A stretch of 64,000 nucleotides of DNA from a virus: IMG/VR virus record IMGVR_UViG_3300045988_060960. One strand, given 5' to 3'. The position numbers and the translations under genes were made by a program. The notes beneath the pieces were generated by a model. It saw nothing but the letters and a program-made list of their open reading frames with translations, had not been told where the DNA came from and did not search any database. Positions 2,607 to 60,585 of this stretch are shown here, piece after piece (the stretch's first letter is position 1; the number at the start of each line of letters is the position of its first letter).

Positions 2607-2945
2607 TCAAACCAGATTTTTGCTCATAAAATCGTCGAACTCTTTGTAGTTCGACCAGCCATTCGCATTACCCGCTCGGTGCATTATGTTCCACAGGCCG
2701 AGCAGATCATCGTCGTACCCCATCGTGTCCACGACGAGGTTCTGGTGGAGACAGTACGCTGTCCACAGAGCCAGCAGCTGGGTGCGGTAGACATCCTCCG
2801 TAAAGTCTCCCTCGATAATGAACGCTTTCATGTACCCGAACTCTGCCGTACGGTTAAGCGTGGCGAACTGCCGTTCGATGTACTGCGCGGCGTCCAGATA
2901 CCCGCCGATTTTCAGTTCAGCGATGATTTTCTGCACATCCACCAT
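2607..2945 (-). CDS. Hypothetical phage protein
   Basis: 112-aa ORF in the operon. I recognised no motif. Confidence 0.65.
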   Translation of the reverse strand: MVDVQKIIAELKIGGYLDAAQYIERQFATLNRTAEFGYMKAFIIEGDFTEDVYRTQLLALWTAYCLHQNLVVDTMGYDDDLLGLWNIMHRAGNANGWSNYKEFDDFMSKNLV

Positions 2946-2948
2946 TAT

Positions 2949-3191
2949 TCACCACCATTCTACGTCGCGGATTATGCCCCGGACCACCTGGGAGAGAGAC
3001 CAGTAGATGAACGGCAGAAACAGGGCGAAAACCTCGCCGCCCACGGCGAAATACCCGCGCTGCTGGAAGGCATACGCAGCGCCGCAGCGATAAAGCCAGA
3101 TTCCTACCAGCGTGAGCAGGCCGTACTTGATGATCGTAACCCAGCGGGCGATGTGCTTCCTACGCCCTCGGACCGGATGTCTTTTGTTCAT
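2949..3191 (-). CDS. Small membrane protein (80 aa)
   Basis: The ATG at 3191 follows AAAAGGAGGA. The product MNKRHPVRGRRKHIARWVTIIKYGLLTLVGIWLY...FALFLPFIYW has two hydrophobic segments. Confidence 0.6.
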   Translation of the reverse strand: MNKRHPVRGRRKHIARWVTIIKYGLLTLVGIWLYRCGAAYAFQQRGYFAVGGEVFALFLPFIYWSLSQVVRGIIRDVEWW

Positions 3192-3196
3192 AGCCG

Positions 3197-3334
3197 TCAA
3201 TCCTCCTTTTCCCATTCCATTTGCGCCCGGAGCGTTCGGGCGTACTCGTTGTACGCCCGAACGCTTTCCAGGCTGGCCCAATCGACTTGCTTATGCCGCT
3301 CGGCAAGAGCCGCATAATACTCAGCCTGCGTCAC
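3197..3334 (-). CDS. Small hypothetical protein (45 aa), GTG start
   Basis: Absent from the ORF track. The GTG overlaps the peptidase stop (GTGA). My translation is VTQAEYYAALAERHKQVDWASLESVRAYNEYARTLRAQMEWEKED*. Confidence 0.4.
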   Translation of the reverse strand: MTQAEYYAALAERHKQVDWASLESVRAYNEYARTLRAQMEWEKED

Positions 3335-4371
3335 TGAGGAAGCACCTCCTCCTCATCGTAGCCGAACATCCCGTAGTAGTCCTCGCCGAACTCAGACTGG
3401 CAGAGCATCGTGATTGCCCCATCGCCCATCTCCTCGCGCATCGCATCGAGTTCCTCCGGCGTGTAGAAGTCCAGCAGCGCAAAGTATTCCTCGCGGATAC
3501 TGTCGGGGATATGGGAGAGGTCAGCTCCGTCGCAGTCCGGCTCCAACTCGATGACCTTGCCGCCCTTCGTAGGCGGAAGATCTTTGGGGCGCAGACACGC
3601 GGAGCCACGATCGTAATAGTAGTCGTTGCCCCAATGGCCCCAGCCTCTGCCGAACGACCGCGCTGCCTCGATGTACTCGAACCGGGGGAAGTTGGAGGTC
3701 GTGGATTCTTCAACAATCTCCAAGACCTTTTTTACCGTCTGGTTCAGGTGTTTTCTGTTGATATACTCGTGGAGGGTGTGGGCGTTGTAATACCCAGAGG
3801 AAAGATTTACGGCTGCAACACCGAGCGCGGGCGCCACGTAAGAGATGTCGCTAAACGAACCCCACTCGGTAGCGAAGCCTTTTCCAGTTATGTAACTCTC
3901 GAACTCCGGGTTCTCGCAATCGTAATACACTGCATCGTTGCGGCCCTTGCGGTCGATTTCAATGAGCAGCTTCAAGTTACTCAGTTCTTTCGGGAGGCGG
4001 CCTTTCCCATGCTTTTCACAGAACGCGCTTGCGCCTACGCCGCCGACTTCCTCATCGCAGGTGAACAGGAGCCACGGCTTCACTTTGGCCTGCTCATAAA
4101 CTGCGTTCAGAGCATAAACGCCACAGCGGTCGTCACCGCCGATCCCCTGCGGAGACATCAGGATATTCCCGTTGTCCGAGCGGCAGATAGTCTTGACCCG
4201 CTCCTTGTGTACCGTATCGAGGTGAGCCAGCAGCATAACGGGTGCTTCGCCCTTCACGAGAAGATATTTGCCTTTCAAAACAAAGGTGTCTGCGCAGGTG
4301 CGGTATTTCGTCCGCAACATATCAAAAAGCTCTTTCTGGGTCTGGGTCAGGTAATGCTCCAAGGGTTTCAT
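3331..4371 (-). CDS. M20/M28-type metallopeptidase-like protein with an acidic C-terminal extension
   Basis: The motifs MLLAHLDTVH, GIGGDDRCGV and FTCDEEVGGVGA resemble the metal-ligand motifs of M20/M28/M42 peptidases (family recalled from memory). Confidence 0.7.
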   Translation of the reverse strand: MKPLEHYLTQTQKELFDMLRTKYRTCADTFVLKGKYLLVKGEAPVMLLAHLDTVHKERVKTICRSDNGNILMSPQGIGGDDRCGVYALNAVYEQAKVKPWLLFTCDEEVGGVGASAFCEKHGKGRLPKELSNLKLLIEIDRKGRNDAVYYDCENPEFESYITGKGFATEWGSFSDISYVAPALGVAAVNLSSGYYNAHTLHEYINRKHLNQTVKKVLEIVEESTTSNFPRFEYIEAARSFGRGWGHWGNDYYYDRGSACLRPKDLPPTKGGKVIELEPDCDGADLSHIPDSIREEYFALLDFYTPEELDAMREEMGDGAITMLCQSEFGEDYYGMFGYDEEEVLPQ

Positions 4372-6061: not shown

Positions 6062-6499
6062 TTACCTCCTGAGCATTCCATCGTTGATGTAGTTGGCGAA
6101 GATCCAGTTCCGACAGGTCTTCTGCCGGCGAGTGTAAATTCCCGGCGGATTGGGAACATAATCCTCAAAGTGAATGCGCCGCGCGTCCGTGATCTTCAAT
6201 CGGATGAGCCGGTTGTTCACCGTAACTGTTTCGCCGGGAGCGGGGATGAACGCGATGTGCGTATTCTGGTGGTAGTTGAATCCGGCGCTCAGTCCGCAGA
6301 GGTAATACGCGACTGCTTTCGGGTGCTCGATAACGTCGATGTCGATGAGCGCCTTGGGCTGGTGCAGAGTTCCGTAGTAAACCCGATTGTCTTTTCCACC
6401 GATGAAACATTCCGCACAGCATTTACTGATGTCAACTCTGCGGATATCCCGCAGCCAGAAAAACTCGTGATATTTTTTGACTTCAAGCGTGAGGTGCAT
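6062..6499 (-). CDS. Cys-containing 145-aa family protein, paralog 1 of 3 (function unknown)
   Basis: MHLTLEVKKYHEFFWLRDIR..CCAECFIG..AYYLCGLS..NTHIAFIP..TCRNWIFANY. It shares these blocks with 19896-20330 and 57538-58008. The ribosome-binding site is AAGGAGGTG. Confidence 0.8.
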   Translation of the reverse strand: MHLTLEVKKYHEFFWLRDIRRVDISKCCAECFIGGKDNRVYYGTLHQPKALIDIDVIEHPKAVAYYLCGLSAGFNYHQNTHIAFIPAPGETVTVNNRLIRLKITDARRIHFEDYVPNPPGIYTRRQKTCRNWIFANYINDGMLRR

Positions 6500-6966: not shown

Positions 6967-7057
6967 TTGTTTGTCCTCCTTAGCAGTAATTCCGACCTGC
7001 CATCATCAGCGCCGGGGAGGTCGGCCCCCGGCGGACGCCCTTTCGGGCGTTTCGGCT

Positions 7058-13178: not shown

Positions 13179-15596
13179 ATGAAAAACGACCGCCAAATCA
13201 CGATCACCGTCGGTAATAACCGAAAGAGTGTAAATTGGCAGCCGCAGACCATCATGCTTTCGGAATTCTACGAAAAGCTCCGAATTCCGAGCCGTTCGAC
13301 AGAGACGATGCAGGAATATCTGGCTCTGAAGAAATCAGAGCAGGATGACCGGAAAGACATCGGTGGATTCGTCGCAGGCAGCCTGTCCGGCCCCCGCAGA
13401 AAAGCGGGAGCCGTGACGGGACGTGATGTGATAACGCTGGATTTTGACAACATTCCTCCCGGCGGCACGGAGGAAATAGAAAAACGGGTCGAGGGCCTCG
13501 GGTGTGGGTACTGTATCTATTCCACTCGGAAACACGCACCGGCCAACCCTCGGCTGCGGATTCTACTGCCGCTCGATCGGACAGTGACTTCGGATGAATA
13601 CGAGCCTCTCGCCAGATACATGGCGACTTGTATCGGCATCGAGTTCGCTGATCCGACTACGTTTGAGGCCACCCGGCTCATGTATTGGCCGAGTTGCTGC
13701 GCAGACAGCGAGTACGTCTTCGTGTTCGGAGACAAGCAGATGCTCTATGCAGATGGCCTCCTGCAAGTCCTTAACGAGAAATACGGCGACTGGCGCGATG
13801 TGAGCAAGTGGCCGCAGGTTCCCGGAGCGGACAACGCATATAAAAAGATGGCGATGAAGCAGAGCGACCCGCTGAGCAAAAATGGCGTAGTGGGCGCGTT
13901 CTGCCGGACATACGACATATATGGCGCGATGGACACCTATCTCGACGGGATCTATGCACCGGTGGATAATTCCAGAGGCCGTTTCACTTATCTTGGCGGC
14001 AGCACGACCGGCGGCGCTGTGGTGTATGACAACGGTATGTTCCTCTATTCGCACCACTCCACTGACCCCTGCTGCGGGAAGCTGGTCAACGCCTTCGATA
14101 TGGTTCGGCTGCACAAGTTCGGAGACCGAGATGACGGTGCTGACCCCAATACTCCCACGAATAGACTTCCATCCTACACAGCGATGTGCCAGCTTGCCTT
14201 GGATGACCCCAAGGTCTCCCGGCAGCTGGCGAAGGAAAGAGCCGATTCTGCGGTGAACGATTTCGGCGGGCTGGCAGCGGCGGCCAAAGAGGGCGAGAAC
14301 CTCGACTGGACGATGGATCTGGAACTGAACCAAAACGGCATGGTCAAGGCCACCATCGACAACATCTGGCTTATCCTTGAAAACGACCCGAACCTCCGTG
14401 GCAAATTCGCTCTAAACGAGTTTGCGGGTCGTGGCGAGGTGTTGGGCGACTTACCGTGGAGTTCTTTCGACCAGCGCAGAGCTTGGGCAGACAATGACAA
14501 TCAGGGCCTCTACTGGTACTTCGAGAAGGTCTACAAGATCACCGGAAACGGGAAGATCGACGGCGCTCTATCCCTGCACAGCGAGAAGCATAAGTTCAAT
14601 GACGTGCGCAACTATCTGTCCAAGCTCAGCTGGGACGGCTATCCGCGTCTGGACACGCTGCTGATTGAGTACCTGGGCGCGATGGATCGACCCTATGTTC
14701 GGGCGGTCACGCGAAAGGCTTTCACAGCTGCTGTGGCTCGGGCCATGACCCCCGGCTGCAAATACGATACGATGCTCATTTTGGCAGGCGCCCAGGGCCT
14801 TGGCAAGTCCACCCTTCTCGACAAGATGAGCAGAGGCTGGTTCAACGACGGTATCCGCACATTTGAGGGAAAGGAAGCCAGCGAGCTGCTACAAGGCGTG
14901 TGGCTGGTCGAGATCGGCGAGCTGGACGCCTTCAGGCAGACAGATGTCGCTCGCATCAAGCAGTTCCTATCCCTGCGAGCAGACCGCTTTCGGGCGGCCT
15001 ACGGGCGCCACGTGAAGGATATCCCGAGATGCTGCGTGTTCTTCGGAACCACGAATACCGCCATGTTCCTGCGGGACCGCACCGGCAACCGCCGGTTCTG
15101 GCCGGTAGATGTGGGCCTGCAACCGCGCATCAAGACTGTGTGGGACGATTTGGATGACGACACCATTGACCAGATATGGGCCGAGGCTGTTATGCGCTGG
15201 CGTTTGGGCGAGAGCCTATTCCTGACGGGAGAGTTGGAAGACGAGGCCAAAAAGGAGCAGGAAGATCACCGGGAGATCAGCAGCAAGGAGGGCATCATCC
15301 TCGATTTTGTCGAGAGACAGGTGCCGGAGGATTGGCAAAAATGGTCGCTGGATAAACGCCGGCTGTTCTTAAACGGTACAGTCGAGGGCAACGTAACCTT
15401 GGTTCCACGCAACCGAATTTGTGCGCTGGAAATCTGGTGCGAAGCCTTCGGCGGGCAGCCGAGAGATTTCCGGTATTCTGAATCCTCGGAAATCAACGAC
15501 ATCCTCAGAGCGATGCCTGGATGGGAGAAAGCTCCCAACGGTTTGCGCTTCGGATATTGCGGGTATCAGAGGGGGTTCCTTCGGAGAAAGGAGTGA
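13179..15596 (+). CDS. Primase/helicase of the VirE (virulence-associated protein E) type
   Basis: 805 aa. It has a P-loop (LILAGAQGLGKSTLLDK), FFGTTN and RRFWPV blocks typical of VirE-family phage replication proteins, and a prim-pol-like N-terminus (ITLDFDN). Confidence 0.8.
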   Translation: MKNDRQITITVGNNRKSVNWQPQTIMLSEFYEKLRIPSRSTETMQEYLALKKSEQDDRKDIGGFVAGSLSGPRRKAGAVTGRDVITLDFDNIPPGGTEEIEKRVEGLGCGYCIYSTRKHAPANPRLRILLPLDRTVTSDEYEPLARYMATCIGIEFADPTTFEATRLMYWPSCCADSEYVFVFGDKQMLYADGLLQVLNEKYGDWRDVSKWPQVPGADNAYKKMAMKQSDPLSKNGVVGAFCRTYDIYGAMDTYLDGIYAPVDNSRGRFTYLGGSTTGGAVVYDNGMFLYSHHSTDPCCGKLVNAFDMVRLHKFGDRDDGADPNTPTNRLPSYTAMCQLALDDPKVSRQLAKERADSAVNDFGGLAAAAKEGENLDWTMDLELNQNGMVKATIDNIWLILENDPNLRGKFALNEFAGRGEVLGDLPWSSFDQRRAWADNDNQGLYWYFEKVYKITGNGKIDGALSLHSEKHKFNDVRNYLSKLSWDGYPRLDTLLIEYLGAMDRPYVRAVTRKAFTAAVARAMTPGCKYDTMLILAGAQGLGKSTLLDKMSRGWFNDGIRTFEGKEASELLQGVWLVEIGELDAFRQTDVARIKQFLSLRADRFRAAYGRHVKDIPRCCVFFGTTNTAMFLRDRTGNRRFWPVDVGLQPRIKTVWDDLDDDTIDQIWAEAVMRWRLGESLFLTGELEDEAKKEQEDHREISSKEGIILDFVERQVPEDWQKWSLDKRRLFLNGTVEGNVTLVPRNRICALEIWCEAFGGQPRDFRYSESSEINDILRAMPGWEKAPNGLRFGYCGYQRGFLRRKE

Positions 15597-15602: not shown

Positions 15603-15941
15603 ATGGTTGTGAAAAAGGCTGGCGGAAAAATATACGGGGCGGTCTTTACAGCCGCCGAGCGGAAGGCCATGAACATCGAGATCGAGAGACAGCTTGCGGA
15701 GTATACGCGCAAATACGAAGTAGAGCTGAACGCCAGAGTTTTGTACGTTCTTCGAGAGCAGTTGGGTTTCGGTGAGCAGCGTCTGCGGAGGTTCTTCGAT
15801 CGGTTTCAGATCGAGATAGATGATCTGGTCAAATACTACGAGATGGGCGACGAGGACGCCGCGTGGCTCTGTACGAGGAAGCTCAAAGAAGCCGGAATCG
15901 ACGTCGCCCAGTGGTGCAAAGAGGCTGAAACATTGGAATGA
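15603..15941 (+). CDS. Hypothetical protein
   Basis: 112-aa ORF. Its last 17 nt, including the TGA stop, lie inside the 313-bp element. Confidence 0.6.
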   Translation: MVVKKAGGKIYGAVFTAAERKAMNIEIERQLAEYTRKYEVELNARVLYVLREQLGFGEQRLRRFFDRFQIEIDDLVKYYEMGDEDAAWLCTRKLKEAGIDVAQWCKEAETLE

Positions 15942-16237
15942 AACATCTGAATTTAAGTCAAACATTAGACACGAAATTCAAACTTTAGGCGGGAAATTCA
16001 ACCCAATGTTTCAGGCCGTGAATGTTTCAATGTATCGCCAATGTTTCACCAATGTATCGGCCAAAACCCCAGTAAAATCAAGGGTTTCCGGCGTTTTGAA
16101 ACATTGAAACATTCATTTCTATAAATTATGAAAATAGAGAGATTAGAGAGATTAGAGAAAATATCGCACGTCTCTAATCTCTCTAATCCGCCTGATTTGC
16201 GCGTAGTACGCGCGCGCGAAACGGCTGAATGTTTCAG
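15925..16237 (+). repeat. 313-bp non-coding element, copy A, bounded by 10-bp terminal inverted repeats CTGAAACATT...AATGTTTCAG
   Basis: It aligns end to end with the reverse complement of 41902-42214, which is the same length. It contains 8 exact TGAAACAT/ATGTTTCA octamers (15926, 15939, 16097, 16105 forward; 16006, 16022, 16041, 16229 reverse), an AT-rich block and an 18-bp hairpin (16141-16158 / 16171-16188). Confidence 0.85.
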
Positions 16238-16247
16238 GAGGAAAAAC

Positions 16248-17919: not shown

Positions 17920-18411
17920 ATGAACAGAGATGAGATCGCGGAAGTCACCCGCATTGCCGCAGCTGAAGTTCTTGCCCGAAAGGATGAGCTGCTTGATGAG
18001 GAATATGACGCTCGTTATCACGACGTTAATCTGCTTATGAAAAACTACCGGAAGCTGAAAGCGCATTACTCCCACGTCTCTCCCGAGGCTCTGGAAGTGA
18101 GTTCGATCTGCTCGATGCGCCGGAAGACTGGGCTGATGATGAGCCACGTAGATAAAATGCTGGTGGCCTACGAGGCCATGTGCAAGGAATCCGAGAACTC
18201 TGATGAGGCCCGGCGCTGGGAGGCGCTGTATCTGCGGTACATCCAGCCCACTCGCATGAGTGTGGACGATATCGCTGATGAGCTGTGTATTGATAAGCGG
18301 ACCTTCTATCGCGACATCAATCGCGCGATGGAAGACATGGCCGTTTTGCTGTTCGGAATTGAGGCCATCGGGTCGTGGAGGCACAAGCGTGCTGCCGACG
18401 TCAAAAGATAA
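17920..18411 (+). CDS. Putative late-gene transcriptional activator (ArpU/RinA/sigma-70 region 4-like)
   Basis: It has NYRKLKAHY and a C-terminal HTH-like block SVDDIADELCIDKRTFYRDINRAMEDMA. It is the last gene of the replication operon. The family assignment is from memory and not verified. Confidence 0.55.
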   Translation: MNRDEIAEVTRIAAAEVLARKDELLDEEYDARYHDVNLLMKNYRKLKAHYSHVSPEALEVSSICSMRRKTGLMMSHVDKMLVAYEAMCKESENSDEARRWEALYLRYIQPTRMSVDDIADELCIDKRTFYRDINRAMEDMAVLLFGIEAIGSWRHKRAADVKR

Positions 18412-19311: not shown

Positions 19312-19360
19312 CCTTTCACCTCCTGAACTACTTTGCGGTGGGTTTCTTAACTTACGGTTT

Positions 19361-19455
19361 CATTATAGCACTTATAGTCCTCAATGTCAACTCCCATTCT
19401 CTTTTTTCTCGAAAAATTTTCTGGTGTTGACAACTTGACTTAAAAGACATATAAT
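19361..19455. promoter_or_regulatory. Divergent lysogeny-switch promoters with an A/T palindrome between them
   Basis: Minus strand: TTGACA at 19390-19385, 18-nt spacer, TATAAT at 19366-19361. Plus strand: TTGACA at 19427-19432, 17-nt spacer, TATAAT at 19450-19455. Between them lies TTTTTTCTCGAAAAATTTTCTGG. Confidence 0.65.
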
Positions 19456-19899: not shown

Positions 19900-20330
19900 G
19901 AGTGACGTTGGATATAAAAAAGCAGTGCTCTTTCTTCTGGCTGAGAGCTATCCGAAGCGCCCGTATAGACCGGTGCTGCGCCAAGTGTTTCATCGGGGAT
20001 GCCTACCACGAGGTCTATGAAGGAACCCGATTCAAAGATAAGGCGCACGTGGATCTGGAAATCACTCCTGATCCGCGTGTCAAGGCGTATTACCTTTGCG
20101 GTCTCAGCCGTGGATTCCGGTACAAGGATAATACTCACATCGCTTTCGTCCCCTGCGAGGGGCAAGACATTGAAGTGGAAAACGACAAGATTCGGCTCAT
20201 AATTACTGGCGCTCGCCAGATTGATTTCCAGAATTACAAGCCGAACCCGGAAGGCGAATATACCCACGAACAGCGTACCTGCCGAAACTGGATCTTCGCC
20301 AACTATTTGCTGGACGGGATGCCGCTTTGA
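19896..20330 (+). CDS. Cys-containing 145-aa family protein, paralog 2 of 3
   Basis: FFWLRAIR..CCAKCFIG..AYYLCGLS..NTHIAFVP..TCRNWIFANY. Its start overlaps the repressor stop (ATGA), and its stop overlaps the integrase start (TTGA). Confidence 0.8.
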   Translation: MRVTLDIKKQCSFFWLRAIRSARIDRCCAKCFIGDAYHEVYEGTRFKDKAHVDLEITPDPRVKAYYLCGLSRGFRYKDNTHIAFVPCEGQDIEVENDKIRLIITGARQIDFQNYKPNPEGEYTHEQRTCRNWIFANYLLDGMPL

Positions 20331-21727
20331 ACCGCGCAGCCCTCTACATCCGCGTCTCTACGCTTGAACAGGCGCAGGAGGGCTATTCCGTAGGCGAGCA
20401 GAAGGAACGCCTGATTGCGTACTGCAAAGCCAAAGACTGGATCATCGCAGACATCTATGTGGATGGCGGATATACCGGCAGCAATCTGAATCGCCCCGGT
20501 ATCCAGAAGCTCATCTCAGAAACGGATAAGTTTGATCTCGTGCTGGTCTACAAGCTGGACCGCCTCTCACGGTCTCAGCGGGACACGCTGTACCTCATCG
20601 AAGAAATATTCCGGCCCAAGGGCGTAGACTTTATCTCCATGCAGGAGAGCTTCGACACCTCTACGCCCTTCGGAAAAGCAATGATCGGCCTGCTGGCAGT
20701 ATTTGCCCAGCTTGAACGCGAGCAGATCAAGGAGCGAACGTGGATGGGCCGCGTTGCCCGAGCCAAAACCGGCCTCCATCACGGTGGCGGGTACATCCCT
20801 ATCGGCTACGAGTATGAGGACGGGCATCTCGTCATCAATCCGTATGAGGCAGAGCAGGTTCGGAAGATCTACGAATGGTATCTCGCCGGCGCTTCCCTGA
20901 AGACAATAACTGACCGGCTGCAAGAGGCGGGGTACACCAATAAATACAGCAGCTATACCTCGTGGTCAAGTGTTCGGAACATTCTCGGCAATGAGACCTA
21001 CACTGGGAGGCTGCACTTCGGAGATGTGGTCGTGGATCACGCACACGAAGCAATTATCAGTACAGAACAGTTCAACGCTGCACAGGTTCTGCGAGGTAAG
21101 AAGCAGGAACAATACGGCACGGCTTTCCAGTCGAAGCACCTCCTGACTGGGCTTATCTTTTGTGGACATTGCGGAGGACGGTATTACCTTCGCAACACCG
21201 GCAAGTACACCTACTATGCCTGCTACTCCCGCACCAAGCAGATAAAGAGCATGGTCAAGGACCCGAACTGCAAAAACAAGATCTGGAAAGGCTCTGAGCT
21301 GGAACCCATCATTGATGCCAAGATCCGGGAACTGCTGTCCTCCCCGCAGATGGCAGCCGAGATTGCGGCAGCTCGAAAGCCAAAGCCAGCCACCGGCAGC
21401 AGAAATACCGAAGTGGAAAAGCGGCTCCGGGAAATCGACAAACAAATTGGTAAGCTCATGGAGCTGTACCAGCACGACGATATACCGCCCGAGCTTCTGG
21501 GCGAGCGCATCAACAAGCTCTACAACGAGCGCACCGCGTTGGAATCCACCCTTGCCCCGGTGGTCGAGGATGAGGCCATGCCGTTCGATTTGGTGGAGGC
21601 CCTCATCTCGGACGCCGCGCAGGTCTGGGACTTCGCGGACGAGAGCCAGAAACGCCGCATCCTGCAAAGCCTCGTGTCCCGCATTGTGCTCACCGATGAT
21701 GACGTCAAGATTGAGTGGGCCTTCTGA
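20327..21727 (+). CDS. Large serine recombinase (phage integrase)
   Basis: AALYIRVSTLEQ carries the catalytic Ser motif. LVYKLDRLSRS is present, followed by recombinase and zinc-ribbon regions (CGHCGG..YYAC) and a coiled-coil tail. It uses a TTG start. Confidence 0.9.
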   Translation: MNRAALYIRVSTLEQAQEGYSVGEQKERLIAYCKAKDWIIADIYVDGGYTGSNLNRPGIQKLISETDKFDLVLVYKLDRLSRSQRDTLYLIEEIFRPKGVDFISMQESFDTSTPFGKAMIGLLAVFAQLEREQIKERTWMGRVARAKTGLHHGGGYIPIGYEYEDGHLVINPYEAEQVRKIYEWYLAGASLKTITDRLQEAGYTNKYSSYTSWSSVRNILGNETYTGRLHFGDVVVDHAHEAIISTEQFNAAQVLRGKKQEQYGTAFQSKHLLTGLIFCGHCGGRYYLRNTGKYTYYACYSRTKQIKSMVKDPNCKNKIWKGSELEPIIDAKIRELLSSPQMAAEIAAARKPKPATGSRNTEVEKRLREIDKQIGKLMELYQHDDIPPELLGERINKLYNERTALESTLAPVVEDEAMPFDLVEALISDAAQVWDFADESQKRRILQSLVSRIVLTDDDVKIEWAF

Positions 21728-21740
21728 TGGCAAACAAAAA

Positions 21741-21773
21741 AAAGCCCTACCGCTGCGTGAGCGGTAGGGCTTT
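21741..21773. terminator. Bidirectional terminator hairpin between the convergent integrase and lysis operons
   Basis: The 13-bp perfect stem AAAGCCCTACCGC / GCGGTAGGGCTTT has loop TGCGTGA and is flanked by an A-run and a T-run. Confidence 0.7.
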
Positions 21774-21777
21774 CTTG

Positions 21778-22290
21778 TTACTTCTCTGAAGACTGCGCGA
21801 TTGCGTTCTGCACAACGGCGGCTGCGGTCGCAGCAGCAGTGCTGGCGGCAACCGATGTAGCATTCGCAGAGCTGGCGCTTTCCAGTGCCGCAGTAGCGGC
21901 GGGCAGCACCTTCTGCTTGCGTACCTCGGCCTCAATGTAGGTGGTGAGGTACTCGGTCAGATCGCCATAGGTTTCCTCGATAAAGGCTTTGGTTGCGGGG
22001 CTGATCGCCTTGATACAGGCGGCAAGCGCCATAGCAAGGGCCTGCTTCTGAGCCTCCGCGTCAAAGCTGCCGGCCTTCTTCAGTTCATCGACATAGGTCT
22101 GCGAAACGGCAAACACAGCGATACTGACGATACCGGTTACTTCCTCGATGACGTTCCCCAGCAGAATGCTGTTGGTCTGCGCTGCGGCCTCCTCACCTTT
22201 CTTCTTGACGAAGGCGGCGACATAAGCGGAGAGCGCGGTCACTGCGGCGGTGACAACCGCCATCAGCAGGTTAAAGACAGCTTCATTCAT
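21778..22290 (-). CDS. Holin, LL-H-like
   Basis: It has an N-terminal TM segment (FNLLMAVVTAAVTALSAYVAAFV) followed by KKKG and a long helical region. The architecture and its position next to the endolysin fit the LL-H holin family (from memory). Confidence 0.65.
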   Translation of the reverse strand: MNEAVFNLLMAVVTAAVTALSAYVAAFVKKKGEEAAAQTNSILLGNVIEEVTGIVSIAVFAVSQTYVDELKKAGSFDAEAQKQALAMALAACIKAISPATKAFIEETYGDLTEYLTTYIEAEVRKQKVLPAATAALESASSANATSVAASTAAATAAAVVQNAIAQSSEK

Positions 22291-26861: not shown

Positions 26862-27004
26862 AGGGATGTTCCTCCTTTTAGCTGTACGGGCTTTCCAGCG
26901 CCTCCGCAGAGGTGTACTAACCCGCTCCCCAAATTTGCTTATCTTCACCAAGGGGTGCGCGACTACCTGTGCCGTGAAATGGAGGATTAAGCAAAGCACA
27001 AAAA

Positions 27005-27147
27005 GGATGCGGCAGCCGATGTTCGCGTTCGAGTTCGAGACGTCGTTGTAGTTGACGTAGAACAGGCCGTGGTTGGTGTTCTGGTTGTAGTTGCCACCAA
27101 CGTAGAGGCACGGGTTCGACGAGTTGAAGTTCCAGTTATCGCACGTA
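27005..27147 (-). repeat. DGR template repeat (TR)
   Basis: 143 bp aligned to 27265-27407 (offset 260). It is rich in AAC codons on the minus strand (translates as CDNWNFNSSNPCLYVGGNYNQNTNHGLFYVNYNDVSNSNANIGCR). Confidence 0.9.
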
Positions 27148-27189
27148 ACCCAGAACGATGACATCGGCACTGCACAGGTAGCCCCGGTT

Positions 27190-27259
27190 GGTCCCCGCGC
27201 CTACGGCGCGGGTCCCTTATGAGGGGGCTTCGCCCCCTCAAACTCCCCCATTAGGGGAG
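27190..27259 (-). promoter_or_regulatory. Three consecutive GC-rich hairpins between VR and TR
   Basis: Hairpins: CTCCCC/GGGGAG (27243-27259, including the stop codon), GAGGGGGC-TTC-GCCCCCTC (27221-27239), and CCCGCGCC-TAC-GGCGCGGG (about 27193-27213). Confidence 0.6.
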
Positions 27260-29350
27260 TTCTTGGAGGCGGCAGCCGATGTTCGCGTACGAGTACGAGA
27301 CGCCGTTGAAGTAGACGAAGAACAGGCCGCGGTAGGTGCTCTGGACGTAGTAGCCACCAACGCAGAGGCACGGGTACGACGAGTTGAAGTACCAGTAATC
27401 GCACGAATACGTAGAATCGCTGCCACTGGACGCAGACGGCGCGAACACCGGGAACCCAGCCTGAGTTCTCACTGTGAACTTAGAAGGATAACCGCTCGTT
27501 AGCGTACCCACGTTCACGCCGTTGGCGCTGTCGCTGAACTGGTTGGGATTCTTGATGACGTTCAGGCCGCTGCCGTTGTAATAGCAACCGTCCATCCAGT
27601 CGTACACGTTATCCCACAAGCCCTCGATGTTGCGGTACTGGGTACCGCAGCCGTAGGTGGTGCGGGAGTTCTTCGTGGTGCCGGTATGGTAGGGCATACT
27701 GTCGGTGTACCCCATATTCTCGGTGTTGCTGTCGTTACCGCAGCCATACCCGATTTTCGCCTGAGAGTTCCAATCGGCGAACTCCACAATGTAGAGCAGC
27801 CAGATGGTGAAACGCATCAGGAAGTCCATCTGCCAGATGTTCGCGCCGAGGCCATGAATGGTGGAACGAGCACTGGACCGGGTGATGTTCGCCTTGGGGC
27901 GCTGGCCGCTGGTGGACTTGTTGCTGGACGTGCCGCAGTGATAACGACCGATGTACACGACATCGCGCTCGCCCTTGCCGTCGCCCCTGTCCATGTGGGC
28001 GGGGGAAACAGAAAAGCCGCTCTGCGCTCTGTCGGCGATCTGGATTTTCAGGCCGTTGCCGTTCTGGGTCAGCTTGTACCAGAACTTCGGGATGGCGACC
28101 ATCGTACCGCCGGTGCGCTCGCTCTTGACCATGCCCGCCCACGGCTGCAAATCGTCGAAGGGAGAGCTGTACTTACTTGCGCCCTGCACATACGGCACGG
28201 GGTCAGTGAAGCCCGCCGCCTCATCGGTGCGGGTCCACTTGGTCGTGCTGCTGCCATCCCAGCTCGCGCCGTAGATGTGGACCATGTTGGTCACGTTGAC
28301 CGTAAAGGTCTTGTTGGCGGGAGCGTTGTGGTTCGTGCCAGCCGCGACCTTTACGGTTACAGTCACGTTGCCCTCATCGAGCGCGGTGACGTTTACCTTG
28401 TTGCCGCTGACCGACACGCTGACGACATCGGGGTCGCCGGACGTGGCGGTAATCGCACCGTCGCCCGCACGGGTCACAGTGACGGAGCCGGTAGGCGAAT
28501 CGCCGTTCAGCGACAGCGAAGTCGGATTGAGGCTCAGAGAGCCAGCAGCCTTGGCAATGCTCCACGCCACGGTCTTGGCGGTGGTCGTGCCGTCGCTCCA
28601 CTGGTAGCCGGGCTTCGGAGTGAAGCTGGCATTGTAGCTGCCGGCGTTGGTGCCGCTGGTCGTGCCGCCCAGTGTCAGCTCGGCGCTGTTGTAATCGTCG
28701 AACGTGGGGGTCTGCGCCTGACCGGTGTAGGTCAAGCTCTCGCCCTGAGACGGGATGGCCGCAATGGGGATTTTGACGGTGGCGGTGTAGTTCTCGTCGG
28801 CCTCCGTCACGTTGACCTCTACGGACGCAGAGGTCTTGCCGGAAATTGTGGCGCTTACCGTGTATTTGCCGGCCTTCTTGACCGAGATCGCAGCCACGCC
28901 GCTGCCGTTGGCGGTTGCGGTGTAGGCGCTGCCACCGAGGACAGCCTTTGCCTCCGCGTTGGGGGCAGTCGTGACCGTAATGGTCGCGGTGAACACGGCC
29001 AGCGTGACTTCATACTGGCCGAAGTACGCGCCGGTGGTCACGGTTGCGGAATACTGCTCGCCAGACGCTGTGCTCGCGCTGACGGTGTACTCCGTGTTGC
29101 AGTTCTTGACGCTGACGGAATCCACAAGACCCTCCGGCACGGTGCCGGTCTTGGTGTCCCCCGCGCCGTCAGTAACCGTGTACTGCTGGCCGGCAAAGTC
29201 AGCGTCGAACGTGATTTTCAGGACGCACCCGGAACCGCCGCCCCCTTCAAGCGCCTCGTTCGCCTTCTCCAACGCGCTGTTGGCAAGGGCGCGAACCGCT
29301 TCAAGCTCGGGACCGCTCACGCCGGGTACGTTTACACTTCCATAGCCCAT
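27251..29350 (-). CDS. DGR target: receptor-binding tail-fibre protein with Ig-like repeats and a C-terminal FGE-sulfatase/C-type-lectin-like VR domain
   Basis: 699 aa. The central region has T/S/V-rich beta repeats. The C-terminus ...YIGRYHCG...GLWDNVYDWMDG...CDYWYFNSSYPCLCVGGYYVQSTYRGLFFVYFNGVSYSYANIGCRLQELP carries the VR. Confidence 0.85.
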   Translation of the reverse strand: MGYGSVNVPGVSGPELEAVRALANSALEKANEALEGGGGSGCVLKITFDADFAGQQYTVTDGAGDTKTGTVPEGLVDSVSVKNCNTEYTVSASTASGEQYSATVTTGAYFGQYEVTLAVFTATITVTTAPNAEAKAVLGGSAYTATANGSGVAAISVKKAGKYTVSATISGKTSASVEVNVTEADENYTATVKIPIAAIPSQGESLTYTGQAQTPTFDDYNSAELTLGGTTSGTNAGSYNASFTPKPGYQWSDGTTTAKTVAWSIAKAAGSLSLNPTSLSLNGDSPTGSVTVTRAGDGAITATSGDPDVVSVSVSGNKVNVTALDEGNVTVTVKVAAGTNHNAPANKTFTVNVTNMVHIYGASWDGSSTTKWTRTDEAAGFTDPVPYVQGASKYSSPFDDLQPWAGMVKSERTGGTMVAIPKFWYKLTQNGNGLKIQIADRAQSGFSVSPAHMDRGDGKGERDVVYIGRYHCGTSSNKSTSGQRPKANITRSSARSTIHGLGANIWQMDFLMRFTIWLLYIVEFADWNSQAKIGYGCGNDSNTENMGYTDSMPYHTGTTKNSRTTYGCGTQYRNIEGLWDNVYDWMDGCYYNGSGLNVIKNPNQFSDSANGVNVGTLTSGYPSKFTVRTQAGFPVFAPSASSGSDSTYSCDYWYFNSSYPCLCVGGYYVQSTYRGLFFVYFNGVSYSYANIGCRLQELP
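27265..27407 (-). repeat. DGR variable repeat (VR) at the 3' end of the target gene
   Basis: By my manual alignment there are 18 mismatches to the TR. Every one is at a position where the TR coding (minus) strand has A. The first non-A mismatch (27148/27408) marks the repeat boundary. Confidence 0.9.
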
Positions 29351-41441: not shown

Positions 41442-41675
41442 TCAGGATTTTTTATTCCACTCATTTTGCCACAGGAGGCGGGCCTGCTCAGCTTCTGTAA
41501 ACTCAAACAGATCCATTTCTTTCAGCTCTGTATAGCTGATTCCCCCCATGCAGAATGTCATCCGCCAAAAGCGTTCATTCCTGCGCGCTCGTTTCTCGGC
41601 GGCTTTAGGATTTTGCTCGCTCCGCAAGAAAGTTTTCGATCTCGCGTACCAGCTCACCCGGCGTTGCGAGATCAT
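41442..41675 (-). CDS. Tail assembly chaperone extension ORF (possible frameshift product or a small separate gene)
   Basis: It overlaps the 3' end of 41605-41886 by 71 nt in the +1 frame. An internal ATG at 41561 is an alternative independent start. Confidence 0.4.
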   Translation of the reverse strand: MISQRRVSWYARSKTFLRSEQNPKAAEKRARRNERFWRMTFCMGGISYTELKEMDLFEFTEAEQARLLWQNEWNKKS

Positions 41676-41886
41676 CCTGATCGTCGAAGTAACGGATTCC
41701 GCCCTTCGAGACTTCCACGGGCGCAGTTACGCAGCCCTTGATGAGTGCGTCCGCGTATTTCGCGGTATTCTTTCTTCCATTGGCGGGGTTGATGTAGAGG
41801 TCAGTCAGGTTCGAGTACCACGAAAAGGTGACACTCTGAAGCTGGTAATCCACGCCACCGACGGTGACTGTTTTAGTACGGGCCAT
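41605..41886 (-). CDS. Tail assembly chaperone (XkdN position)
   Basis: 93 aa, between the tube and tape measure genes. The ribosome-binding site is GAAGGAG. Confidence 0.65.
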   Translation of the reverse strand: MARTKTVTVGGVDYQLQSVTFSWYSNLTDLYINPANGRKNTAKYADALIKGCVTAPVEVSKGGIRYFDDQDDLATPGELVREIENFLAERAKS

Positions 41887-41901: not shown

Positions 41902-42214
41902 CTGAAACATTCAGCCGTTTCGCGCGCGCGTACTATGCACGAATTAGGCGTATTAGAGAGAATAGGCGTATACGTGCTGCACACGAATACGCCTAAATAC
42001 TCTATTTTAGATATTATTAGGAATAAATGTTTCAATGTTTCAAAACGGTCAAAACCCCAGTAAATACGGGGATTTTGGGTGAAACATTGCCGATACATTG
42101 GCGAAACTTTGAAACATTCGGGGGCTGAAACATTGGGTTGAATTTCCCGCCTAAACTTCGACTTTCGTGTCTAATGTTAGACTTTAATTCAGATGTATCA
42201 CCCCAATGTTTCAG
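41902..42214 (-). repeat. 313-bp non-coding element, copy B (inverted relative to copy A)
   Basis: It has the same 10-bp termini and the same length. It contains 7 exact TGAAACAT/ATGTTTCA octamers (41903, 42080, 42110, 42126; 42027, 42035, 42206) and a hairpin TAGGCGTAT/ATACGCCTA (41963-41971 / 41987-41995) at the position homologous to the hairpin in copy A. Confidence 0.85.
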
Positions 42215-42606
42215 TTTTGCAGCGTCAGATCCGGGATGATAAAGATGATGGAAACGTCCGCAGCTTCCTTCGCACGGGAGCGGTCGGGCAGCTTGGACAC
42301 CATCACATTCCGGGCAAAAATCACAGTGCCGTTGTCATTGGCATCCGTGACAGCCAGATTGCCCATTGTGTTCTGCTCGGCGCACCGCTCGATGAACGAG
42401 ATGTCCGGAGAATCGGGCTGAAGCGTGATGGTCAGCTTAGCAGCCTTGTTGGCGTTCAGGATGTAGGTCCCGTCGCCCTTCACGCCTTTCTTCAGCGTCA
42501 CGTTATCCTCGTCTCTTGCAAGGGTGAACAAGCTGTCACCGAACATACGGAGCTGATGATTGTTGAAGGTCACGTTTACCTTCTGGGGATCGTAGGTCTG
42601 TAACAT
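42211..42606 (-). CDS. Tail tube protein (XkdM position)
   Basis: 131 aa, immediately after the sheath gene. Its TGA stop lies inside the terminal repeat of the element. Confidence 0.7.
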   Translation of the reverse strand: MLQTYDPQKVNVTFNNHQLRMFGDSLFTLARDEDNVTLKKGVKGDGTYILNANKAAKLTITLQPDSPDISFIERCAEQNTMGNLAVTDANDNGTVIFARNVMVSKLPDRSRAKEAADVSIIFIIPDLTLQN

Positions 42607-45003: not shown

Positions 45004-45432
45004 TTACTCCTCCACTTTGTACGCGATGCGGTCTCTGATGTGAGTACCTGTTTCATACAGCGTCGTGTGCTGCGTTTTCTTTGAGAAATCAGATTGCGGC
45101 TTGACACGGTTATCGTCGATGAAGTTCTGCACGAGTTGAGCAGCCTGCGCCCCAATGGCGTTCGCTGCGGAACTTGCGGATGTTTCACCTGTCAGAACCT
45201 TGTCTACCTGCTTTGTAACAATGCCGCTGAGCTTTTCTTGGTCGGCATCGAAACTCGCTCGTATGAACGAGCGTTCTGGCAGCTTATCAGTACCGTACTC
45301 ATGCGCGTGGGCAATCGCGATAACTTCCGAATCTGCCTCGCCCACAATCCCGACAATGATTTTCTTGCCCGCCATCTCACGGCAGGCGGATTTCAGGCGC
45401 TCAAAGTCGCTGAGTATCGCATTGGTGTCCAC
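45004..45432 (-). CDS. HK97 gp10-like head-tail joining protein
   Basis: AIAHAHEYGTDKLPERSFIRASF resembles the gp10-family core. The GTG at 45432 follows GGAGG plus 8 nt. Confidence 0.6.
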   Translation of the reverse strand: MDTNAILSDFERLKSACREMAGKKIIVGIVGEADSEVIAIAHAHEYGTDKLPERSFIRASFDADQEKLSGIVTKQVDKVLTGETSASSAANAIGAQAAQLVQNFIDDNRVKPQSDFSKKTQHTTLYETGTHIRDRIAYKVEE

Positions 45433-56704: not shown

Positions 56705-57541
56705 TCAGTTCCTTTGCTTTATTTTTTCGTTCCCGTTGAGAGGCGGCCCGAGGAGGTCGCAATCCACGTCAGGAGCGGGCTGAACATAGCCGTAGTGGTT
56801 TGCATAACAGTAGGCGCAGCCGTTGCTGCAAGTGCTGTACGCACCGATATCGACGCTCTCAACGCATTGGCAAAGGCCGCGCTGGTTGCGGTCCTTTGGC
56901 TTGTCAACGCCAAACATTTTTCCATCGACGCAGCAAGAATGGGGTATTCCCAAATCCTCTGCGCAGGAACTTAAAACGATCCCGTGCTGCCGTGCAATCT
57001 CGAAAAGTTCCTGCGCAAATTCGCGCTGCTGCTCCGGCGACAAGGGCTGTATTTTGAGCGGTCGGAGGTCTACGCTTCGGTAGGAATCGACGAAGCTCAT
57101 CACCGCCTTATACGTGTGGCCTTCGAGCGCCTCCGCGATTTTGGTAAAAGCCCTGACGTGATAATCCCAGGTGTATTTCTCATTCAGAAAGACGGGATCG
57201 TAACGCCAGATGGCCTTATCCGCCCCGATCTTTTTGAACGCCGGAATAACAATCTCGTTCTTATCGGGAATATTCCGCTCCACATCCCGGCCATACGGGG
57301 TGATGGTGTACTGGAAATAATATTTGAACGCATCCAGCTCGTGAATTCTATCGAGCATGGGGGCTGCGTTTTTGGTCCAAAAAACAAACCCATCTACTTT
57401 GTCGGGCGTGAGGGATACACGCCCGACTTGTAGAGGGTTGTATGGGTTTCTAAGGAGGACAAATCCCTTACCCACGCGGTTGTAAAACCACTCGGAGAAC
57501 AAAGCCGGGATGTCCGTCCGTCTACTTGCGCTCACGATCAT
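56705..57541 (-). CDS. DUF1848-like protein with a C-terminal Cys cluster (putative Fe-S, radical-SAM-like)
   Basis: The N-terminus is MIVSASRRTDIPALFSEWFYNRV and the C-terminus is GLCQCVESVDIGAYSTCSNGCAYCYANH. Start set at 57541 (ATGA overlap with the upstream gene). The track ORF extends further by read-through. Confidence 0.8.
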   Translation of the reverse strand: MIVSASRRTDIPALFSEWFYNRVGKGFVLLRNPYNPLQVGRVSLTPDKVDGFVFWTKNAAPMLDRIHELDAFKYYFQYTITPYGRDVERNIPDKNEIVIPAFKKIGADKAIWRYDPVFLNEKYTWDYHVRAFTKIAEALEGHTYKAVMSFVDSYRSVDLRPLKIQPLSPEQQREFAQELFEIARQHGIVLSSCAEDLGIPHSCCVDGKMFGVDKPKDRNQRGLCQCVESVDIGAYSTCSNGCAYCYANHYGYVQPAPDVDCDLLGPPLNGNEKIKQRN

Positions 57542-58008
57542 AATGGCATCCCATCCTTCAAGTAATTCGCAAATATCCAGTTTCGGCAGGTCCGCTGAGA
57601 CTTTGTATAAACTCCGGGCGGATTCGGAACATAGTCCCAGAAGTGAATTCTGCGGGCGTTTGTGATGTCGAGCTTGATTCTGTCGTTTTCGATGTGAACT
57701 TCCGAATTGCTGTCCGGCACAAACGCGACGTGCGTATTCAACTCCCACACAAAACCATCGCTCAGCCCGCAAAGATAATACGCTTTCGCTCGCGGGCTTT
57801 GCCCCACCATGATGTCAACAACGGCCTGCGATTTGTGCAGTGTTCCGTAGTAGACCCGGTTGTCCTTCTCGCCGATAAAACACTTGGCGCAGCATTGCGA
57901 GATGTCAACGTCCCGAATGTCTCGGAGCCAGAAGAAATTGCATTTCTTCCGAATCTCCAATCGCAGGTGCATCGGCGCGTGTGTAACTATGAAATCCGAT
58001 GGTATCAT
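57538..58008 (-). CDS. Cys-containing 145-aa family protein, paralog 3 of 3
   Basis: MHLRLEIRKKCNFFWLRDIR..CCAKCFIG..AYYLCGLS..NTHVAFVP..TCRNWIFANY. The likely true start is the ATG at 57972, because the ATG at 58008 lies inside the -10 box. Confidence 0.8.
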   Translation of the reverse strand: MIPSDFIVTHAPMHLRLEIRKKCNFFWLRDIRDVDISQCCAKCFIGEKDNRVYYGTLHKSQAVVDIMVGQSPRAKAYYLCGLSDGFVWELNTHVAFVPDSNSEVHIENDRIKLDITNARRIHFWDYVPNPPGVYTKSQRTCRNWIFANYLKDGMPL

Positions 58009-59223: not shown

Positions 59224-59238
59224 GTCCTTTTCACCTCC

Positions 59239-59940: not shown

Positions 59941-59943
59941 AGG

Positions 59944-60561: not shown

Positions 60562-60585
60562 CTCATGTCCTCCTTTTTTGGGCAA

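Follow-up and report, generated by a model that had tools for sequence, protein, structure and literature searches.

A duplicated, iteron-bearing element as the probable replication origin of a temperate Clostridia phage

In this analysis we describe an element of 313 nt that is found twice in a 60-kb temperate siphovirus-like gut phage of Clostridia, and that is probably a composite replication origin of the iteron type (as in SaPI and P4), with its octamers as iterons and a duplicate in the late operon. We favour this reading because the octamers change in step with two residues at the C-terminus of the primase-helicase. An initial annotation of the 64,000-nt stretch of DNA analysed here (the window) had offered three possibilities: a MITE-like insertion, a promoter/leader cassette bound by a phage regulator such as that encoded at 17920-18411, and an iteron-type origin within the replication module. 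The last has gained from this co-variation and from a layout of the SaPI type; the MITE-like insertion is rejected, and the promoter cassette finds no support as far as the octamers go. The main features are the following.

13179-15596, plus strand: gene of an 805-aa primase-helicase with a VapE-like SF3 helicase, the proposed reader of the octamers
15207-15593, plus strand: its C-terminal domain, residues 677-805, a predicted winged helix
15925-16237, plus strand: copy A, composite origin-like element (nhmmer profile match 15923-16240, E 3e-82)
17920-18411: gene of a 163-aa regulator (matches to HTH_23 and to PHROG 'transcriptional regulator/activator')
41605-41886, minus strand: gene of 93 aa adjoining copy B, upstream of the tape-measure gene
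41902-42214, minus strand: copy B, inverted, flanked by the tail-tube-like gene and the 93-aa gene (sequence alignment and profile search)
42211-42606, minus strand: tail-tube-like gene adjoining copy B

The two copies, their modules and their relatives

Copy A and copy B are both 313 nt long. Copy A starts CTGAAACATT and ends AATGTTTCAG, the reverse complement of copy B has the same termini, and the two can be aligned end to end with 81% identity over the first 222 nt and 90% over the last 69 nt; the DNA flanking them does not align between the loci. These points reproduce the initial annotation, as does the identity of the final stretch, then given as 32 nt and here found to be free of differences over 32-34 nt. 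The copies are 25.6 kb apart and inverted relative to each other. The '10-bp terminal inverted repeats' described earlier do match at the ends, but they are merely the first and last octamer plus one base per side.

In the window the element begins 329 nt past the primase-helicase gene. One 112-aa ORF (15603-15941) lies between, and its stop codon (15939-15941) falls inside the element as had been noted, within the second octamer of copy A. At its other end copy A abuts the GGAGG ahead of the ATG at 16248 of a VRR-NUC nuclease gene, again as seen before, and this gene and an SNF2 helicase gene come after it. This position, directly 3' of the initiator gene, is the usual site for such origins. 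The cumulative GC skew of the window, taken as an origin marker, has no clear inflection at 16 kb and flattens only near 42 kb.

For the octamer TGAAACAT the window has 17 occurrences where 1.86 would be expected, and none of 100 shuffles reached 17. Fifteen of the 17 lie inside the two copies (8 in A, 7 in B), and two are strays at 6403 and 45180. Copy A has four in forward orientation (15926, 15939, 16097 and 16105) and four in reverse (16006, 16022, 16041 and 16229), as well as AATGTATCG variants; the earlier count of four and four plus variants is confirmed, and the tandem reported with it corresponds to the two abutting forward iterons at 16097 and 16105. The modules of the two copies are arranged as follows.

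15926-15965, plus strand: distal forward iterons of copy A, TGAAACAT at 15926 and 15939 and a degenerate TCAAACAT at 15958
15965-15999, plus strand: M2, two direct repeats TTAGRCRSGAAATTC with a period of 20, kept in close relatives
16006-16059, minus strand: array of five reverse iterons (ATGTTTCA three times, ATGTATCG twice) with spacings of 16, 8, 11 and 11 nt
16060-16096, plus strand: M4, spacer with the conserved box AAAACCC...GGGTTT, kept as GCYAAAACCCTTG across iteron classes
16097-16112, plus strand: two abutting forward iterons TGAAACATTGAAACAT, position invariant in all relatives
16095-16150: AT-rich block, 76-84% A+T against about 45% in the window, the proposed DNA-unwinding region
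16133-16196: M3, long imperfect palindrome of 9-nt repeats (AWTAGAG three times, then CTCTAAT twice and GCCTGAT)
16199-16218: GC-rich hairpin GCGCGTAGTACGCGCGCGCG, kept across iteron classes
16229-16236, minus strand: terminal reverse iteron, adjoining the VRR-NUC Shine-Dalgarno
42193-42213, minus strand: distal forward iterons of copy B (TGAAACAT, TGATACAT)
42080-42133, plus strand: five-iteron array, reverse relative to the element
42027-42042, minus strand: two abutting forward iterons
41990-42054: AT-rich block, 72-80% A+T
41943-42006: M3 palindrome, whose arms are unlike those of copy A yet still pair (TAGGCGTAT / ATACGCCTA)
41903-41910, plus strand: terminal reverse iteron, adjoining the Shine-Dalgarno of the 93-aa gene

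After the distal ones, the iterons of the element run from five reverse to two forward, followed by the AT-rich block, which in copy A holds a -10-like TATAAA at 16120, and by one reverse iteron. The arms of the M3 palindrome co-vary across relatives.

We find the composite element in over 40 contigs of related Clostridia phages and prophages, at two shared sites. One directly follows the primase-helicase gene, whose stop codon is in many relatives overlapped by the first iteron; the other lies between the genes for tail tube and tail chaperone. Two clusters with the same repeats in one genome are also found in more than 10 relatives. The proteins of relatives that share both orthologous sites are only 56-90% identical, and the layout outside the iterons is preserved in all iteron classes. 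One relative (L050) is without the tail-site copy and has an unrelated spacer of 110 nt there instead; in another (L080) the two copies, both of the G-type described below, are direct and not inverted. Copies A and B of one genome are 75-80% identical, which equals or exceeds the identity of A with A or B with B between lineages (57-77%). Such concerted evolution points to occasional recombination or gene conversion between the copies.

Co-variation of the iterons with the primase-helicase

The proposed initiator matches the Pfam VapE-like_dom at residues 480-698 (E 7.5e-76), SaPI1 Rep in the PDB (7pds, E 1e-71) and the families phrog_256 and phrog_9765; its N-terminal part is annotated as a primase in PHROGs, and the first 470 aa gave no match when searched by sequence against the PDB. 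For an AlphaFold model of the C-terminal domain (pLDDT 84) the sole significant Foldseek match in the PDB was again 7pds (E 7e-7, TMq 0.71), to whose C-terminal part it aligns, with weak winged-helix domains ranking next. On this model the domain is predicted to fold as a winged helix resembling the one in SaPI1 Rep. The domain also occurs on its own, as a 161-aa protein (P0013) of an unrelated mobile element (L114-L116); with no iteron cluster nearby, this case is uninformative.

In a survey of about 60 loci the octamer took the forms TGAAACAT, TGGAACAT, TGTAACAT, TGACACAT, GTTACTTT and others, and each variant tracked residues in the C-terminal beta-hairpin of the primase-helicase. The two specificity-linked residues, G788 (codon 15540-15542) and Y796 (codon 15564-15566), both lie in this terminal hairpin. 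At octamer position 3 a Y at residue 796 goes with A and a K with G: proteins that end in ...NGLRFGYCGYQRGF have TGAAACAT iterons (T-type) in every case, and those that end in ...xS[LVI]RFGYCGKQRGF have TGGAACAT (G-type) in every case. At least five separate lineages show the K/G state while their closest relatives are of the Y/A type. Where residue 796 is R the iterons are GGAACAT or TGACACAT; the other classes are A with TGTAACAT, L with GTTACTTT, V with TGTAACTT, F with TTGTAAAC and T with TCTTACA, and eight or more iteron classes show this co-variation of residue and iteron. The iteron type of copy B matches that of copy A in the same genome; in contigs 083900 and 028045 copy B has 11 G-type cores and no T-type core.

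From this pattern in the sequences we propose that the C-terminal domain binds the iterons specifically. A single residue is not the whole code, since R is paired with two different iterons (L120, L131). It might also be possible that the co-variation in part reflects co-inheritance of one recombination block, because the 3' end of the gene adjoins copy A; between L084 and L082 the whole 3' part of the primase-helicase gene is more diverged than the remainder. The independent lineages and the joint switching of copy B argue against this account, but do not abolish it. Within 10 kb on either side of the primase-helicase no gene was partitioned by T- and G-type in its presence, absence or identity.

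How might such an origin work? The C-terminal domains would bind the 8-11 octamers, which stand in opposing orientations around the AT-rich block; the primase-helicase would then assemble and, as a self-loading helicase, melt the AT-rich block and the palindrome region, after which the N-terminal primase of the same protein would begin DNA synthesis. The M2 repeats, the AAACCC box, the 9-mer palindrome and the GC hairpin would belong to the architecture of this origin. Copy B would present a second binding cluster for the primase-helicase inside the tail operon.

Other readings of the element

The strongest competitor, although in our view an unlikely one, is a portable promoter/leader cassette in which the tandem octamers replace the -35 and are bound by an activator, a TAnnnn hexamer is the -10, and the palindrome and GC hairpin form the 5' leader of the mRNA. 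Downstream would be the VRR-NUC/SNF2/regulator operon on one side and the tail chaperone, tape measure and lysis genes on the other. In every context seen the element runs in the same direction as the genes on either side and stops at a ribosome-binding site, and in all relatives the TAnnnn stands 6-7 nt past the tandem octamers, all of which suits a promoter too. In copy A one can read TTGAAA-18 nt-TATAAA, single-sequence folds give a stable hairpin just past the putative start in almost all representative leaders, and a regulator gene lies downstream. However, a consensus scan gave no sigma-70-type promoter in copy A or B, TTGAAA-18-TATAAA is without the conserved T at -10 position 6, and the -35-like match is gone in the G-type and other iteron classes. 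The palindrome moreover has no strand asymmetry or G-U excess.

The regulator encoded at 17920-18411 is rejected as the binder of the octamers. It had been called ArpU/sigma-like, but its matches are to the HTH_23 and PHROG families listed above and not to ArpU or sigma models. A T-type phage (L055) and a G-type phage (L052) do not differ in its HTH region, which stays the same between TGAAACAT and TGGAACAT phages and so does not co-vary with the octamer as the C-terminus of the primase-helicase does. A promoter could coexist with origin function, since replication origins frequently contain promoters, and a weak or activator-dependent one may lie within the AT-rich block. A terminator scan placed a sole terminator-like site inside an element, at 41985-41967 (minus strand) of copy B, which is within shuffle expectation.

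That the element is a structured cis-acting RNA, one copy for each transcription arm, for example a put-like antitermination element, seems very improbable. It is true that two stem-loops precede the downstream genes, and that between relatives a change in one stem arm is compensated in the other. But the palindrome folds alike on the two strands (mean MFE -22.6 and -22.7 kcal/mol) with only 6-9% of pairs being G-U, from which we take it to be a feature of the DNA and not of an RNA, and its stems are made of 9-nt direct repeats as is typical for DNA binding or unwinding elements. With RNAalifold, 23 diverse leaders gave no consensus structure, for which shifts of the repeat register in the alignment are responsible. 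An Rfam scan had been suggested in the initial annotation; run on both copies against Rfam 15, it gave nothing at gathering score and chance-level matches only, at E up to 1.

There is similarly little to recommend the view that the inverted 313-bp repeats are a recombination substrate by which the 25.6-kb segment inverts and genome isomers arise. The repeats are inverted, 79-90% identical and in concerted evolution, but the relatives in which both loci were recovered all share the relative gene orientation of the window, the copies of L080 are direct, and recombination would leave the iteron architecture and its co-variation with the helicase C-terminus unexplained.

Hardly credible at all is a MITE-like non-autonomous insertion with terminal inverted repeats and sub-terminal transposase-binding sites: in its favour are the 10-bp terminal inverted repeat, the sharp shared ends and the unrelated flanks, but the repeat is the outermost iteron pair, there are only two copies in the window, which occupy the same orthologous sites in dozens of relatives, and only one weak match was found among 50,697 phage records; neither a target-site duplication nor a precise empty site nor dispersed copies turned up, the flanks of copy B being AAAA and AAGG, the GAGG on both sides of copy A being a ribosome-binding site, and the L050 tail site being an unrelated spacer.

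Known origins, the second copy and significance

An iteron-type origin would place the element next to several known systems, first of all the SaPIs with their Rep and PriRep proteins. Their Reps are initiator-helicases whose C-terminal winged helix reads iterons of 5-6 nt immediately downstream of rep, pointing in opposite directions around an AT-rich centre (PMC9371898). As in the SaPIs, the initiator here is a VapE-like SF3 helicase with a (here predicted) C-terminal winged helix, the SaPI5 form being primase-fused as well (PMC9371898), and 6-12 short iterons of opposing direction with an AT-rich centre lie just downstream of its gene. The SaPIs are, however, satellite islands of Staphylococcus aureus and not a 60-kb Clostridia phage, and the iterons here have 7-8 nt. 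The two 15-nt direct repeats, the AAACCC box, the 9-mer palindrome, the GC hairpin and the full second copy in the tail operon set the phage apart; the match to the SaPI origin family is incomplete, since SaPI origins are without the M2, palindrome and GC-hairpin modules.

In the satellite phage P4 the octameric iterons of ori and crr form two clusters kilobases apart, one adjoining the initiator gene, and the phage here likewise has two separated octameric clusters, one beside the initiator gene. The P4 iteron TGTTCACC resembles ATGTTCCACC or ATGTTTCACC here. The P4 primase is DnaG-like. P4 crr is not a full copy of ori, whereas the copies here are collinear over 313 nt. The alpha protein of P4 unites primase, SF3 helicase and a C-terminal winged-helix origin-binding domain in one polypeptide (PMC2777425). 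The 805-aa protein has the same three parts, its winged helix being predicted, and neither in sequence nor in fold was a match to the P4 domain found.

The Bacillus phage SPP1 offers a parallel for the position of copy B. Its two origin-like regions, oriL and oriR, are similarly made up of repeats and an AT-rich unwinding element. One belongs to the replication module, while its counterpart lies in an intergenic gap that breaks up the late structural genes; the same origin-binding protein binds both, and for oriR a fork stall and a theta-to-sigma switch with a Holliday-junction resolvase have been proposed (PMC6316719, PMC3485210). One origin-like region in the replication module and a second among late structural genes is what we see here too, and copy A is followed by the VRR-NUC nuclease and SNF2 helicase genes. 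Yet SPP1 gp38 is unrelated to the initiator here and works only with a separate loader and a helicase of the DnaB type, oriL is located within gene 38 whereas copy A lies downstream of the initiator gene, and the SPP1 origins, unlike A and B, are not near-identical full-length copies.

Foley and co-workers are said to have described in 1998, for Sfi21-type phages of Streptococcus thermophilus, a non-coding origin of about 300 bp after a primase/VapE-type gene, with direct and inverted repeats, which when cloned reportedly gave phage-encoded resistance. These phages have a single copy and not two, and we know of no co-variation of iteron and initiator described for them.

What might the second copy do? 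On these analogies copy B could be a second origin, a cis-enhancer like P4 crr, or, as has been proposed for SPP1 oriR, a protein-bound fork barrier that aids the switch from theta to concatemer replication. A bolder idea, which we put forward tentatively and consider rather doubtful, is that copy B is no redundant origin but a programmed control point, at which the bound initiator-helicase stalls the fork from copy A and forces a theta-to-rolling-circle switch, or couples replication to expression of the tail and lysis genes, which begin directly where copy B ends, and that the palindrome and GC hairpin are a new loading or priming module common to the iteron classes. In the integrated prophage the copies face outward to attL and attR, so replication in situ could run into host DNA.

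Elements of this kind can be misannotated as MITEs or promoters. To our knowledge hardly any replication origin has been mapped in the temperate phages of gut Clostridia. The element is a concrete candidate origin for a large family of Clostridia prophages, whose hosts are Butyricicoccus, Oscillospiraceae and Lachnospiraceae; among them is the T-type prophage (L132) of the cultured strain Butyricicoccus pullicaecorum DSM 23266. The family is also a natural specificity series: eight or more variants of the iteron each go with changes in a two-strand 'wing' of the initiator, among them repeated changes from Tyr to Lys matched by A to G. The series would provide a ready-made recognition code for self-loading helicases of the SF3 kind, which as far as we know have been studied structurally in SaPIs only. 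With its full-length copy B kept in step with A, the phage would be a clean system for the role of a second origin, a question still debated for SPP1 oriR and P4 crr. Cloned copies of the element might titrate the initiator and in this way lead to phage resistance.

Layout and setting of the element

The window carries two 313-nt copies of one element, copy A at 15925-16237 (+) and copy B as the reverse complement of 41902-42214, both starting with CTGAAACATT and ending with AATGTTTCAG. As the initial annotation had described, they can be aligned end to end and their flanking DNA cannot; in a repeat search A and B were 81% complementary across a 222-nt stretch and 90% across the final 69 nt. 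The window contains 17 occurrences of the octamer TGAAACAT where 1.86 would be expected (0/100 shuffles reach 17): copy A holds eight, four per strand as first counted, and copy B seven. Variants of the form AATGTATCG are also found. Two stray octamers outside the elements (6403-6410 and 45180-45187) are compatible with chance (1.9 expected). The stop codon of ORF 15603-15941 indeed lies inside copy A, within the second octamer, and the copy ends at the GGAGG belonging to the next gene, whose start is at 16248. Terminal inverted repeats had also been proposed; the matching ends exist, but the layout of copy A identifies them as merely the first and last octamer.

Layout of copy A
15926, 15939, 15958 (+): two forward octamers and a degenerate third
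15965-15999: two direct 15-nt repeats, TTAGRCRSGAAATTC
16006-16059 (-): five reverse octamers
16060-16096: spacer with conserved AAACCC box
16097-16112 (+): two abutting forward octamers
16095-16150: AT-rich block, 76-84% A+T (window average ~45%)
16133-16196: palindrome of 9-nt repeats (AWTAGAG x3, CTCTAAT x2-3)
16199-16218: GC hairpin
16229-16236 (-): final single reverse octamer

The window represents a temperate siphovirus-like phage genome of ~60.7 kb. Its + strand encodes, at 8.2-21.7 kb, a PD-(D/E)XK nuclease (DUF2800), an Enc34-type ssDNA-binding protein, a family-A DNA polymerase and an 805-aa VapE-like primase-helicase, followed by a 112-aa ORF, copy A, a VRR-NUC nuclease, an SNF2 helicase, a 163-aa HTH regulator, an XRE-type regulator and a 466-aa ORF (20327-21727, +) that by eye reads like a serine recombinase. 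Structural and lysis genes occupy the - strand; there copy B is flanked by a tail-tube-like gene (phrog_280) on one side and, on the other, by a 93-aa gene immediately upstream of a 971-aa tape-measure ORF. At both sites the element is oriented like its neighbouring genes. Only ~50 nt separate the end of the putative recombinase ORF from the last gene on the - strand, and attP probably lies in this gap (21727-21778); in that case an integrated prophage would have both putative origin copies facing outward, towards attL and attR.

Several further features were noted. The final 3259 nt repeat the previous 3259 nt as an exact reverse complement (57483-64000, zero spacer, centre 60741/60742). This suggests a fold-back artefact of assembly or a reflected contig end, and the true sequence therefore probably stops at 60741. 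A DGR at 26872-27405 comprises an RT-18 RNA (RF03021, 69.7 bits; 26872-26957, -) and a 141-nt repeat pair (27005-27145 and 27265-27405) in which 17/17 mismatches fall at T of the first copy (+ strand; A on the - strand), the adenine-specific template-to-variable pattern. A type II hammerhead ribozyme (RF02276, 46.2 bits, above gathering score) lies among early-left genes at 6991-7057 (-). A second intergenic repeat family, containing TTTTCGGGAAAATTTTTCCCGAAAAA, forms a 74-nt inverted pair (216-289/18478-18551, 85% complementary) and recurs at 230-260 and 19360-19390; its sites adjoin the regulator and XRE genes and the window start, and may be operators or terminators.

An origin-like arrangement and its candidate initiator

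Judging from sequence, the element is quite probably a SaPI/P4-type iteron origin read by the primase-helicase as initiator, in a Clostridia phage family. Among the options of the initial annotation, the iteron-type origin is favoured over the others, as the octamers co-vary with the primase-helicase C-terminus and the layout fits SaPI origins. The protein has a VapE-like domain at residues 480-698 (Pfam), its N-terminal 440 residues are primase according to PHROGs, and its sole PDB sequence match is 7pds, SaPI1 Rep (E 1e-71). A structural model of residues 677-805 (pLDDT 84, pTM 0.74) has one clear match, the C-terminal part of 7pds (E 7e-7, TMq ~0.7), with winged-helix DNA-binding domains next, weakly. 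SaPI Reps are self-loading initiator-helicases whose C-terminal winged helix reads iterons of five or six nucleotides; these number 6-12, lie directly downstream of rep and flank an AT-rich centre, at least two per side and in opposing directions, and in SaPI5 a primase is fused to Rep (PMC9371898). In sequence and layout, the element and predicted initiator described here would fit each of these points. The P4 alpha protein combines primase, SF3 helicase and C-terminal winged helix (PMC2777425).

The 9-mer arms form a long hairpin in almost all of 24 representative sequences (single-sequence folds; z-scores -0.5 to -6.5), with compensating arm changes across relatives, e.g. AGAGAGATTAGAG/CTCTAATCTCTCT versus GGCGGATTAGGCG/CGCCTAATCCGCC. 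Since both strands fold equally (mean -22.6 vs -22.7 kcal/mol), G-U pairs are rare on either strand (6-9%), RNAalifold gave no consensus RNA structure, the proposed Rfam scan of the element matched no family and a sigma-70 scan called no promoter in copy A or copy B, we infer that the palindrome is a DNA feature, a part of the origin serving as unwinding, loading or priming module. A weak promoter co-resident in the AT-rich block is possible because element orientation is constant and a TAnnnn hexamer is fixed in position.

Co-variation of octamer and candidate initiator

Among loci from related phage and prophage contigs (L-numbers), TGGAACAT (G-type) replaces TGAAACAT (T-type) at every octamer position in L048, L052-L057 and L023-L034, and such wholesale replacement points to altered specificity of some binding protein. 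The 163-aa regulator (17920-18411), previously suggested to bind the element as a portable promoter cassette, was rejected as this protein because T-type L055 and G-type L052 have the same HTH region in it. Neither the presence nor the overall identity of any gene within 10 kb follows the type. The final 25 residues of the primase-helicase do follow it, all T-type proteins reading ...NGLRFGYCGYQRGF... and all G-type ...xS[LVI]RFGYCGKQRGF..., a co-variation to be read with the physical linkage of the initiator gene 3' end to copy A. Residues G788 and Y796 lie in the last beta-hairpin ("wing") of the modelled domain. At least five lineages show the K/G state (L083/84/96/108; L130; L097/98/129; L094; L099/100), and the relatives closest to them, judged both from the first 650 residues and from the whole C-terminal region, are Y/A-type. 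Lys or Arg facing G is chemically sensible in protein-DNA recognition. Architecture is otherwise unchanged across further variants.

Further key residues and iterons
R: GGAACAT (L120)
R: TGACACAT (L131)
A: TGTAACAT (L141)
L: GTTACTTT (L117)
V: TGTAACTT (L119)
F: TTGTAAAC (L118)
T: TCTTACA (L110)

Copy B has the iteron type of copy A despite ~26 kb of separation; in L025 and L027 it contains 11 G-type cores and no T-type core, on contigs shared with the G-type proteins L084 and L111. A-B identity inside one genome is 75-80%, against 57-77% for orthologous copies across lineages. At the sequence level, the shared type shows copy B to have been kept able, presumably, to bind the same protein as copy A.

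Loci L114-L116 (3001-3486) encode P0013 (named from Acutalibacter sp.), a separate 161-aa protein that corresponds to the primase-helicase C-terminal domain, K-type. The mobile element around it is unrelated (MmeI-type enzyme, NikA-like, Bro-N), no iteron cluster was found near it in these loci, and the protein could represent a remnant or act as a titrating regulator.

Placement in relatives and the second copy

A 20-mer from the element retrieved 13 IMG/VR contigs, all with the whole element upstream of a VRR-NUC homologue. About 100 further loci were gathered by tail-tube protein, regulator and primase-helicase searches, and an nhmmer profile detected the element in nearly all. Both copies share one contig in, e.g., 035115, 045836, 027555, 011755, 106917, 033494, 083900 and 028045. 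Hosts according to genome records are Clostridia, namely Butyricicoccus pullicaecorum DSM 23266 (isolate) and Oscillospiraceae and Lachnospiraceae MAGs. In many relatives the first octamer contains the primase-helicase stop codon. In L023-L034 an additional gene (~2915-3700) separates tail-tube gene and element; its product, starting MIEKVNPSHPDKIADRIAG, may resemble the N-terminus of S-adenosylmethionine synthetases.

A MITE-like insertion, as once suggested, is ruled out by the fixed sites in relatives, the lack of target-site duplication in the flanks of copies A and B, and L050, the one relative without the tail-site copy, which has an unrelated 110-nt spacer there. By these comparisons the element has been inherited vertically and keeps fixed positions. 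More distant relatives also carry copies (L080, 766-1064 and 4864-5161; L075, 736-1043), but there the second copy is outside the tail operon, a short way downstream of the 163-aa regulator gene (~900 nt in L080); it is directly oriented and nearly identical in sequence to the first copy. The two-copy state thus recurs with varied locations.

P4 alpha binds octameric iterons at both ori and the distant crr. In SPP1, oriL is part of the replication module and oriR occupies an intergenic gap interrupting late structural genes; both have the same repeats and an AT-rich unwinding element and are bound by gp38, and oriR is proposed to stall the fork, leading to concatemeric replication aided by a Holliday-junction resolvase (PMC6316719, PMC3485210). 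SPP1 oriL/oriR and P4 ori/crr are two precedents for a second copy like copy B. What goes beyond known SaPI/P4-type origins here is the extra conserved modules and the full second copy in the late operon. This phage family would also offer a rich natural range of specificity switches between initiator and iteron.
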